DNA of 64,000 nucleotides from Yoonia sp. (lineage in GTDB: Bacteria; Pseudomonadota; Alphaproteobacteria; Rhodobacterales; Rhodobacteraceae). Under the pieces are notes generated by a model. It saw nothing but the letters and a program-made list of their open reading frames with translations. It was not told the origin of the DNA and searched no databases. Positions 18,299 to 20,166 of this stretch are shown one piece after another. The stretch lies in assembly GCA_029252195.1 (NCBI GenBank), contig JAQXBV010000090.1, positions 10,815 through 74,814 on the forward strand. Direction: 5' to 3'. Numbering within the stretch: position 1 is the stretch's first letter; each line of letters starts with the position of its first letter. Made by a program: the position numbers and the translations under genes.

Positions 18299-19504
18299 TT
18301 AACCAACGATATTCTGTGCAGGGCCATAAGGATACTTGGTAATATCCTCGTTTCCGTCTTCGGTGATGAACAAAATATCATGCTCACGGTAGCCACCCGC
18401 GCCAGGTGTGCCTTCGGGAATCGTTAGCATCGGCTCCATCGAGATCACCATGCCGGGTTCCAGCACCGTGTCGATATCCTCGCGCAGCTCAAGCCCCGCC
18501 TCACGCCCGTAGTAATGCGACAGCACACCAAACGAGTGGCCATAGCCGAAGGTGCGATATTGCAGCAACTGGCGCTCTTCAAAGAAGTCGTTGATTTTGG
18601 CGGTAATCTCCGAACACTTCGCACCGGGCACCAAAAGGCTCATGCCATATTCATGGGCCGCGACGTTAGCCTCCCAAATCTTCAGGGATGCAGGATCAAC
18701 CTCCTCGACAAACATCGTGCGCTCCAGCGCGGTATAATAGCCGCTGATCATCGGGAAGGTATTGAGCGACAGAATATCGCCCCGCTCCAGCACGCGCCCC
18801 GTTACAGGGTTATGCGCGCCGTCTGTGTTGATCCCCGACTGGAACCAGACCCATGTGTCGCGATATTCGGCATCGGGAAAGCGCTTGGCGATCTCCAGTT
18901 CCATCGCATCACGGCCCGCCATCGCGACATCAATCTCGCGCACACCCGCACGCGCGGCCTCGTGAATGGCATAGCCGCCCACATCAGCCACGCCCGCACC
19001 GTGACGGATCAAATCCAGCTCGGCTTGGCTTTTCTTCATGCGCTGCACCATGGTTGCAGGCGCGATATCAACCGTCTGCTTGGGCGCCAGAAACGCTTCC
19101 AGCTTCTGGCTTTGCAGCAGCGTCAGGTGATCGCCTTCCAGACCGATCACGGCACCGGAACCCGTTACGGACAGAATTGCGCGCCAGTAATTGTCACGCT
19201 CCCAGTCGGTATAAGTGATGTTATCACCGTGGCAGCGCCGCCAAGGCTGGGCCGCATCAATGCCCGCCGAAATCGTGACACTCTGCGTGGGCGTCACAAC
19301 CAGCCCGTAAGGCCGCCCGAAAGAGCAATAAAGGAAACCCGAATAATAGGCGATGTTATGCATCGAGGTGAAGACCGCGGCTTCAACACCCTTATCGGCC
19401 ATGATCTGGCGCAGGCCCTTCAGACGGGCCTCATATTCGGAAGGGGCAAACGGCAGCACCTCGGCGCCCTGATGAAAACGGTAAAACTGTGGACGGGTAG
19501 TCAT
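18299..19504 (-). CDS. Creatinase (M24 family)
   Basis: SMHNIAYYSGFLYCSFGRPY, WFQSGINTDGAHNP, FGYGHSFGVLSHYYGREAGLELRED and YREHDIL, all creatine amidinohydrolase signatures. Confidence 0.93.
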   Translation of the reverse strand: MTTRPQFYRFHQGAEVLPFAPSEYEARLKGLRQIMADKGVEAAVFTSMHNIAYYSGFLYCSFGRPYGLVVTPTQSVTISAGIDAAQPWRRCHGDNITYTDWERDNYWRAILSVTGSGAVIGLEGDHLTLLQSQKLEAFLAPKQTVDIAPATMVQRMKKSQAELDLIRHGAGVADVGGYAIHEAARAGVREIDVAMAGRDAMELEIAKRFPDAEYRDTWVWFQSGINTDGAHNPVTGRVLERGDILSLNTFPMISGYYTALERTMFVEEVDPASLKIWEANVAAHEYGMSLLVPGAKCSEITAKINDFFEERQLLQYRTFGYGHSFGVLSHYYGREAGLELREDIDTVLEPGMVISMEPMLTIPEGTPGAGGYREHDILFITEDGNEDITKYPYGPAQNIVG

Positions 19505-19631
19505 AGCATAGACCTCACATTTTTGGGGCCAATATGCAGACCCCGAAAGGTCCCGGCGTTCAGGACGAAGGCATCACAGCCAAGCGGCAGTTTCCCACCT
19601 GCGACGACGCCATCGTCGCTTGCTCGGCCCC
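19505..19631 (-). ncRNA. Candidate structured cis-regulatory leader (riboswitch-like) of creatinase
   Basis: P1 GCCGAGC/GCTTGGC encloses P2 GCGACGAT/GTCGTCGC and P3 GGTGG-GAAA-CTGCC; downstream hairpin GGACCT-TTCG-GGGTCT; TTGACG...TAACGC promoter-like motif immediately upstream. Confidence 0.55.
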
Positions 19632-19755
19632 AGCGTTAGCAGGTTTTGCAGATGCGTCAATCCAGTCCATGACGTACCCAAGCGAAGTGCCTGCTTGTGC
19701 AGCACTCCCATAAGAGCGAAACTAGGCCAAAGCCGCGCTGTCCCAGAAAGCCGCC

Positions 19756-20166
19756 ATGTCCATCTTGTCCCGCCTTTTGGCCGTCTTCAGGCCCGTCCAA
19801 CTGCCCGAAGTGCCGCAGGCATTGCCCCATGGCAAACAACGTATCCACCTGTTTTCCGGCAACTTCGATGATGTCGACGCGGCGATGGCCTATTGCTTTC
19901 ACGCGCCGGGTGATGTGCCCGAACAACTCACGCTCGACCAACCAGGTGCCTTCATTGATACAAGCTATGTCGAGGTTGATTTTGGCACCGCTGAAAAGCG
20001 GCTGGCCGAGTTCCTCAGTGCAGAGCAAGCGGATCATGCCTTTCACAAAATGCGTGGCGCGAATACGCTGATTATCATTGCTGAACAGGCGTTTGGCGGC
20101 TTCCCCTATGTGCTGACGCACACGCCAAATCTGTTCTACCTCGGCCCCTATATCGTCGACGTGTGA
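19756..20166 (+). CDS. Hypothetical protein
   Basis: 136-aa ORF whose stop overlaps the next start (TGATG); no family recognised. Confidence 0.7.
   Translation: MSILSRLLAVFRPVQLPEVPQALPHGKQRIHLFSGNFDDVDAAMAYCFHAPGDVPEQLTLDQPGAFIDTSYVEVDFGTAEKRLAEFLSAEQADHAFHKMRGANTLIIIAEQAFGGFPYVLTHTPNLFYLGPYIVDV

Follow-up and report, generated by a model that had tools for sequence, protein, structure and literature searches.

On balance, we read positions 19510-19629 (minus strand) of the window, as we call the whole 64-kb stretch of DNA analysed here, as the putative 5' leader of a creatinase mRNA and as a member of a widespread class of structured RNAs that would act in cis and are so far undescribed; a riboswitch is its likeliest identity, with creatine or guanidinoacetate as the proposed ligand. 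The parts of this reading deserve different degrees of confidence: comparison of the leader with its relatives makes it highly probable that it is a functional cis-regulatory RNA and probable that it binds a small molecule directly, and we name creatine or guanidinoacetate as the molecule sensed more tentatively. The initial annotation of this DNA had already proposed an undescribed structured leader that combines an aptamer-like domain with an alternative pairing to the Shine-Dalgarno (SD) region, and this central idea withstood each computational refutation named there: the element matches no Rfam family, is not a repeat, is conserved and covaries. The proposed anatomy is revised in three respects below. 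On re-reading the sequence, every leader string quoted in that annotation was found at its minus-strand coordinates.

The leader lies in a 251-bp intergenic region (19505-19755) between a minus-strand ORF (18299-19504) and a divergent plus-strand ORF of 136 aa (19756-20166), next to which is a peptidase S58 gene. The product of the minus-strand ORF, whose ATG start codon is at 19504-19502, matches solved creatinases over its full length (7yto, 1.1e-152; 1chm, 4.7e-152; 1kp0, 1.8e-144) and contains the Pfam domains Creatinase_N and Peptidase_M24; by these matches it is a genuine creatinase. The gene and the putative promoter of its leader are:

18299-19504, minus strand: creatinase (creatine amidinohydrolase), the presumed regulated gene, from PDB and Pfam matches.
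19655-19660, minus strand: -35-like box TTGACG, read from the sequence, with a TTG[AC]C equivalent in 38 of the 81 leaders compared below.
19633-19638, minus strand: putative -10-like box TAACGC, weak, with a 16-nt spacer, identical in the closest relative (L001).

The promoter TTGACG/TAACGC had been called in the initial annotation and is plausible. It was not called by a simple sigma-70 consensus scan, because its -10 box is without the final T. The 38 equivalents of the -35-like box lie between -47 and -43 relative to the P2 anchor, the same distance as in the window, and the wider interval from -58 to -38 contains 45 hits of TTG[AC]C as against 9 in the other 45 scanned positions; this conserved position would place the putative transcript start just 5' of helix P1. 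A search for RNA-seq support found the leader sequence in DNA metagenome runs only, the number of RNA runs being 0. In one subgroup of relatives (L050, L070, L073, L078 and L080) an inverted repeat of the form CTTGCCAG-N12-CGGCAAG, which includes the -35-like box, occurs about 45-20 nt upstream of P1 and overlaps the putative promoter; possibly a protein regulator uses this repeat as an operator and adds its control to that of the RNA.

A search of positions 19400-19800 of the window with Rfam 15 (4227 models, both strands) returned no match at E<=10, in keeping with the earlier statement that no match to the guanidine-I/II/III, glycine, SAM or ZTP consensus could be recognised in the leader, and the motif in five relatives (L009, L033, L050, L108 and L201) had no match at E<=5. 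Full-text literature searches likewise turned up neither a riboswitch for creatine, creatinine or guanidinoacetate nor an RNA motif associated with creatinase; in a review from 2025 on the metabolism of guanidine, creatinase appears solely in connection with the protein regulator CahR. The sole Rfam match above the gathering score in the whole window is the ffh sRNA (RF01793; 59559-59610, plus strand, 63.3 bits, full length), which is unrelated to the leader.

Folding of the single sequence (138 nt) gave -58.3 against -47.3+/-3.8 kcal/mol (z -2.9), moderately better than chance, and the minimum free energy (MFE) fold depended on the construct: one construct adopted a long-range alternative fold, and another gave exactly the P1/P2/P3 junction of the initial annotation together with a hairpin at 19566-19550. 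As the single-sequence fold could not decide the structure, relatives were compared. The creatinase protein was scanned against one genome per species, which yielded 80 loci (78-95% protein identity), mostly from Rhodobacterales and in addition from Thalassospira; having been found through the protein alone, these loci are unbiased as to the leader. The initial annotation had asked for conservation and covariation among orthologous leaders, and all 81 creatinase leaders (the 80 relatives and the window) carry the motif, with strong covariation. Two near-invariant blocks, CGAUGGCGUCG and (G/A)UCCUGNACGCCGGGAYCUU, are found upstream of the start codon in all of them, and a covariance model of the core (R1) scores every one at 50-82 bits. 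In the 64-kb window R1 finds exactly one copy (19541-19629, minus strand, 74.4 bits), and across 749 kb it finds nothing else credible beyond the known leaders, except one extra copy in L074.

Scanning metagenome contigs with the exact pattern gave 120 further loci, of which the real copies amount to about 100 distinct sequences scoring 40-79 bits; as they were found by exact pattern, these copies are uninformative on loop variation. About 10 of the 120 pattern hits were discarded as chance matches in GC-rich coding sequence, all scoring below 35 bits except L197 (38.8). The motif also occurs on three plasmids, one of Maritalea myrionectae (Hyphomicrobiales) and two of Loktanella salsilacus, and a weak, diverged copy of 23 bits in Paroceanicella has kept both loops described below. 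The hosts thus span three alphaproteobacterial orders, namely Rhodobacterales, Rhodospirillales (Thalassospira) and Hyphomicrobiales (Maritalea). One locus with a Rhodobacteraceae-type creatinase (83% identity) and a typical leader comes from a contig binned as Limisphaerales of the Verrucomicrobiota (L029, JBIKVM010000091.1), which is probably bin contamination and not spread to another phylum.

The modest z score and the construct-dependent MFE fold of the single sequence would suit secondary structure arising by chance in intergenic DNA of high GC content, or else a repetitive or mobile element. Against this, each window or locus has a single copy, in constant position and orientation before the same gene, and extensive covariation accompanies scores of 50-99 bits in about 180 independent sequences, so that this explanation is effectively refuted by the comparison. 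Nor is the element a genome-wide repeat, an outcome that the initial annotation had singled out: beside the one copy in the window, the roughly 200 other loci have it only before creatinase or amidinotransferase genes or their remnants.

The helices of the core and the proposed contact between its loops are, in the window:

19622-19626, minus strand: 5' strand of P1 (CGAGC), pairing with 19581-19585; the 7-bp version of the initial annotation reaches 19628.
19581-19585, minus strand: 3' strand of P1 (GCUUG), from covariation.
19601-19619, minus strand: hairpin P2 (GCGACGA-UGGCG-UCGUCGC), with an invariant loop at 19608-19612; 5 of 7 pairs covary.
19586-19599, minus strand: hairpin P3 (GGUGG-GAAA-CUGCC), variable and optional; 5 of 5 pairs covary where it is present.
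19570-19581, minus strand: small hairpin P4 (GGC-UGUGAU-GCC); 4 of 4 pairs covary in relatives.
19550-19566, minus strand: hairpin H2 (GUCC-UGAACGCCG-GGAC); 3 of 4 pairs covary, and it is in the RNAalifold consensus.
19555-19558, minus strand: CGCC of the H2 loop, the proposed contact of GGCG (19608-19611) in the P2 loop; complementary and invariant in 81/81.

In the core alignment (A1) 96% of the cells are paired; sliding the partners lowers this to 30-48%, and none of 500 shuffles came up to the values observed. A second covariance model of the full architecture (R2), with 63 leaders aligned (A3), shows compensatory changes in 22 of 25 pairs over the five helices P1, P2, P3, P4 and H2; here 92.7% of the cells are paired as against at most 53.5% when slid, a margin that is large even for an alignment fitted to a model, which favours structure. 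All five pairs of P1 have compensatory changes among the 63 aligned leaders, with variants such as GGC/GCC, GCAGC/GCUGC and GAAGG/CCUUU. P4 has only 3 bp in the window, in an ambiguous register, and is in competition with the two outermost pairs of the 7-bp P1. In the window H2 consists of GUCC (19566-19563), the loop UGAACGCCG (19562-19554) with the invariant ACGCC, and GGAC (19553-19550); across the leaders 98% of its cells are paired, with variation of the type G-C/A-U/G-U, and U-A is replaced by C-G in L076 and C-G by G-C in L007, both being single-sequence double changes at otherwise fixed positions.

Thus, the three-way junction of P1, P2 and P3 recognised in the initial annotation is real, all three helices showing covariation, but minimal leaders (L009, L018, L022 and L031) consist only of P2, a linker of 14-20 nt and H2, and by this comparison the P1/P3 junction is common but dispensable. 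The stretch which that annotation had passed over as a linker turns out to be the most conserved half of the element, holding H2, and the GNRA and UUCG loops to which it drew attention are not conserved across the leaders.

Conservation is concentrated in the loops: all 17 invariant and 11 near-invariant columns are in or next to the P2 loop and the loop and stem of H2. The loops UGGCG of P2 and UGNACGCCG of H2 are invariant in 81/81 leaders, and the block around P2 reads CGAUGGCGUCG in 78 of the 81 genome-derived leaders and CGGUGGCGCCG in the other three, with the GGCG loop core unchanged. Among 181 real copies, the N of the H2 loop CCUGNACGCC (A1 column 113; position 19560 in the window) can be any base except G (A, U or C), and G was seen at this position only in chance pattern matches inside coding sequence.

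The complementarity of the two loops raises the hypothesis of a loop-loop (kissing) contact between GGCG and CGCC, to which U19607-A19559 could add a fifth pair. Four contiguous complementary bases would be expected by chance in 4-10% of random loops of the same size and composition, and covariation is silent on the contact, since neither loop varies; a search for loop variants with which to test it found none, even the most diverged copy, that of Paroceanicella, keeping both loops.

Two guanidine riboswitches come nearest to the leader in the way they work. Guanidine-II consists of two GC-rich stem-loops whose ACGR loops kiss through C-G pairs and which frees the SD (PMC9300104). Like the leader, this class (mini-ykkC) has two linked hairpins with conserved loops containing a CG step, loops which kiss in guanidine-II and might do so in the leader; it too is a proposed translational ON switch freeing the SD, as we propose for the leader, and has a guanidinium-bearing ligand (PMC9300104, PMC12186494). 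The leader differs from it in that: 1) its loops are UGGCG and UGNACGCCG in 81/81 and not ACGR tetraloops, ACGC being present within the 9-nt (or 5-nt) H2 loop and P2 being without ACG; 2) it adds the P1/P3 junction and P4; and 3) its context is creatinase or amidinotransferase and not gdx/sugE or guanidine carboxylase. In guanidine-IV (mepA, or GGAM-1), an ON switch, the conserved nucleotides are located in two hairpin loops, with a presumed pocket formed by a loop-loop pseudoknot (PMC7736828), and the leader resembles it in concentrating its highly conserved nucleotides in two hairpin loops. Guanidine-IV, however, includes an intrinsic terminator in its motif and occurs mostly in Firmicutes upstream of sugE/mepA (PMC7736828), whereas the leader's platform is SD sequestration and its hosts are Alphaproteobacteria. 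A search of the leader found no terminator-like site, and what follows H2 is the anti-SD tract and not a GC stem with a U-run. With other loops, no terminator, another gene context and no model match, the leader is on these comparisons not a member of guanidine-II or guanidine-IV.

Several features that are used generically to recognise riboswitches (e.g. PMC7736828) are found here: a covarying structure, conserved unpaired nucleotides across diverged hosts, a consistent place before the genes of one pathway and of more than one gene family (the second in a single lineage), and, as for a translational platform, an SD-covering helix that is mutually exclusive with H2, with 3 nt shared. Leaders that bind proteins also display invariant single-stranded loops on covarying stems, and the element keeps mainly to a single gene family; the conserved loops might hence be bound by a trans-acting factor, a regulatory protein or a small RNA, which itself senses the signal. 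We judge this to be unlikely. There is no conserved candidate regulator gene beside the motif, the neighbourhoods examined differing widely; the RNA is absent where creatinase adjoins a protein regulator; and the same loops over three orders with several expression platforms are typical of direct metabolite sensing. Presumably the leader loops also do not fit a dual-hexaloop ANTAR target, which we count against a trans-acting factor. Direct binding of a small molecule accordingly stays the preferred reading of the loops.

The same core is combined with at least 3 different layouts of the expression platform. The platform elements in the window are:

19510-19516, minus strand: SD region GAGGUCU, with which GGGACCUUUC forms its best duplex in the window.
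19537-19552, minus strand: UUCG hairpin GGACCU-UUCG-GGGUCU, whose 5' strand shares nucleotides with the 3' strand of H2; in 38 distinct leaders of this subtype 95% of the cells are paired.
19525-19530, minus strand: GGCCCC element, a putative partner of GGGGUC (19541-19536) or of the SD-proximal GGUCU; RGACCCC is conserved in this subtype.

The pairing of GGACCUU with GAGGUCU over the SD, put forward in the initial annotation, was recovered as the best pairing of GGGACCUUUC in the window, at -9.9 kcal/mol and with its start 13 nt ahead of the ATG. When the 10 nt that follow ACGCC (GGGAYCUUUC) were matched with downstream sequence in 80 leaders, the best partner mostly began 11-14 nt before the ATG, and the observed duplex energy of -9.7 kcal/mol is more favourable than the -7.7 kcal/mol of dinucleotide shuffles (Wilcoxon p 7e-12). 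The "direct" layout has GGGACCUUUC paired to the SD region (A)AGGAGGGUC, and for 42 leaders of this type RNAalifold gives as consensus an 8-bp helix GACCUUUC/GGAGGGUC over the SD, with 2 compensatory pairs and otherwise one-sided changes that mostly keep the pairing. In these 42 leaders 3 nt of the anti-SD helix belong to the 3' strand of H2, which takes only 3 of the 8-10 anti-SD pairs.

The "relay" layout, found in 39 of the 81 leaders including that of the window, has four elements, in which GGGACC pairs with GGGGUCU in the UUCG hairpin (19552-19537) and RGACCCC with GGUCUG at the SD, and GGGGUC and GACCCC are mutually complementary; from this complementarity we infer a relay role for the GGCCCC element. 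In both layouts the 3' strand of H2, GGGAC, is common to the SD-sequestering helix, either directly or via the relay hairpins. The UUCG hairpin of the initial annotation is compatible with the data, but it is restricted to this one subtype, whose 38 distinct leaders have one-sided changes only and 0 compensatory changes. When RNAalifold was applied to the window-type platform, the relay elements were too ragged in the MAFFT alignment and H2 alone emerged. In two diverged copies, L108 (10345-10415) and L120 (1231-1282, minus strand), the linkers between P2 and H2 (UUUUCCUC and CUUUCCCCC, respectively) are complementary to the SD (AGAGGAGA and GAGGAGAG), as is proposed for the linker of guanidine-II.

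A two-state thermodynamic model in which P2 and H2 were either enforced or left free raised the mean unpaired probability of the SD from 0.30 to 0.33, some leaders including that of the window being unchanged, with no clear opening of the SD; as it reproduced no clear switch, this modelling was not used for polarity. That the SD is partly paired in both modelled states is also what a ligand-independent structural leader would show, such as an SD hairpin of the thermometer kind, an element for mRNA stability or a standby structure for translation, and SD-sequestering hairpins alone can act as thermosensors. Such an element would nevertheless need no conserved multi-helix domain with interchangeable platforms, and some two dozen bases that never or hardly ever vary are located in two loops at a distance from the SD; we consider it very unlikely.

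As H2 is conserved and covaries, it should be part of the functional, presumably ligand-bound, state, and since it excludes the SD-blocking pairing in all layouts, the architecture predicts an ON switch acting at translation. Under the preferred reading of the leader as a riboswitch, the sensing domain would have two parts: the P1-P2-P3 junction, in which P1 and P3 are dispensable and P2 bears the invariant UGGCG loop, and, after a variable linker that often contains P4, the hairpin H2 with the invariant UGNACGCCG loop. Docking of GGCG in the first loop with CGCC in the second would create a pocket for a ligand of the guanidino-acetate type, creatine or guanidinoacetate. The GGGAC on the 3' strand of H2 would at the same time be the start of the anti-SD sequence GGGACCUUUC. 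In the absence of ligand GGGACCUUUC is predicted to pair with the SD region in the direct layout, and in the subtype of the window to be held in the UUCG hairpin, GGCCCC covering the SD. In the ligand-bound state H2 and the docked loops would hold GGGAC, the SD-blocking pairing would be weakened and translation of creatinase would be turned ON; in the relay layout, holding GGGAC in H2 would leave GGGGUC free to capture GACCCC and thereby release the SD.

The choice of ligand depends on the genes that the motif precedes. Where the downstream gene is readable it is creatinase in 81/81 genome-derived loci and in about 94 of the 120 metagenome loci, the remainder of the latter being 16 contig ends, the approximately 10 chance matches and 3 remnants. 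These three (L181, 2804-2895, minus strand; L183, 1475-1545, minus strand; L145, 812-891, minus strand) have intact cores of 57-76 bits without a full creatinase gene and look like deletion remnants: in L183 only a C-terminal creatinase fragment precedes a YkuD gene, which is the window's own downstream neighbour, and in L181 the motif runs into a phytase-like ORF.

Four copies (the second copy of L074, and L170, L191 and L201) precede not creatinase but a 373-aa homologue of L-arginine:glycine amidinotransferase (E about 1e-84 to human AGAT, 1jdw). L201 is from Aliiroseovarius crassostreae, the proteins of L074, L170 and L191 are 95-97% identical, and in L074 the creatinase copy and the amidinotransferase copy lie within 4 kb of each other. 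All four have kept P1, P2, P3 and both loops, with diverged peripheral sequence. Since eight further amidinotransferase loci (81-91% identity) do not carry the motif, we attribute the association to co-option in a single lineage, that of Aliiroseovarius. An OFF switch at these copies, with feedback on synthesis, was considered and set aside, for the four platforms have the four-element layout of the window type, which makes the same polarity as at the creatinase copies more likely.

Creatinase and the amidinotransferase share guanidinoacetate/creatine chemistry, which points to creatine or guanidinoacetate as the ligand; with essentially one gene family and a second association in a single lineage, the gene context constrains this choice loosely. 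As it is from gene context alone (creatinase, and amidinotransferase in one lineage) that the ligand is deduced, as the guanidino group is common to arginine, guanidine and guanidinoacetate, and as creatinase doubles as a nitrogen-acquisition enzyme, the same riboswitch-type RNA might respond to another ligand: free guanidine, creatinine, urea, sarcosine, glycine, arginine, ornithine or a nitrogen-status signal. We think this improbable. The gene partners of guanidine-I, -II, -III and -IV (gdx/sugE, mepA and guanidine carboxylase; PMC12186494, PMC7736828) do not occur at any of the about 200 loci, the simplest arrangement is for a substrate to induce the enzyme that breaks it down, and sensing of a product would suit an OFF switch, against which the strand shared by H2 and the anti-SD helix speaks. 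Creatine or guanidinoacetate hence remains our tentative choice.

Creatine catabolism is induced elsewhere by proteins. CahR of Pseudomonas putida (PMC12623156) serves this same function, and creatinases at 58-60% identity, on a Leisingera plasmid and in Brucella anthropi, Acinetobacter and Klebsiella, are without the RNA and stand beside LysR or GlxA-type regulators. At these loci a DNA-binding transcription factor takes the place of the RNA, the upstream regions being short and containing no copy of the motif. This distribution fits the view that the RNA is the regulator where it is present.

If it is validated, a creatine/guanidinoacetate riboswitch would enlarge the riboswitch catalogue by a ligand and a fold that are both new; it may be the first natural class for creatine and/or guanidinoacetate and a fifth, distinct RNA solution for a guanidino compound, a suggestion to which we give rather less than even confidence. 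It would account for how roseobacters and their relatives control creatine catabolism without regulators like CahR or those of the LysR type, would put the use of creatine by abundant marine Alphaproteobacteria under its control, and would imply that creatine is a marine nutrient signal important enough to have its own RNA sensor. The compact natural aptamer, about 70 nt in its minimal forms, could serve in creatine or creatinine biosensing, and the leader offers, beside guanidine-II and guanidine-IV, a further natural test case for loop-loop docking in ligand sensing.

Finally, two observations concern the amidinotransferase homologues and the neighbourhood. The AGAT homologues (L074, 6406-7527, minus strand; L201, 6001-7122; P0121-P0240) abound in sequence data from marine bacteria, where clusters have thousands of members. 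Many NCBI records list them as "serine/threonine protein kinase", apparently a misannotation; the JGI name is glycine amidinotransferase. In the window the segment 19756-21876 encodes a small ORF of no assigned function, the peptidase S58 gene and an alpha/beta hydrolase, and these three neighbours adjoin an amidinotransferase gene in the same order in a Rhodobacter sp. MAG (L202, 6751-9122), which suggests a shared neighbourhood with creatinase and amidinotransferase in similar places.
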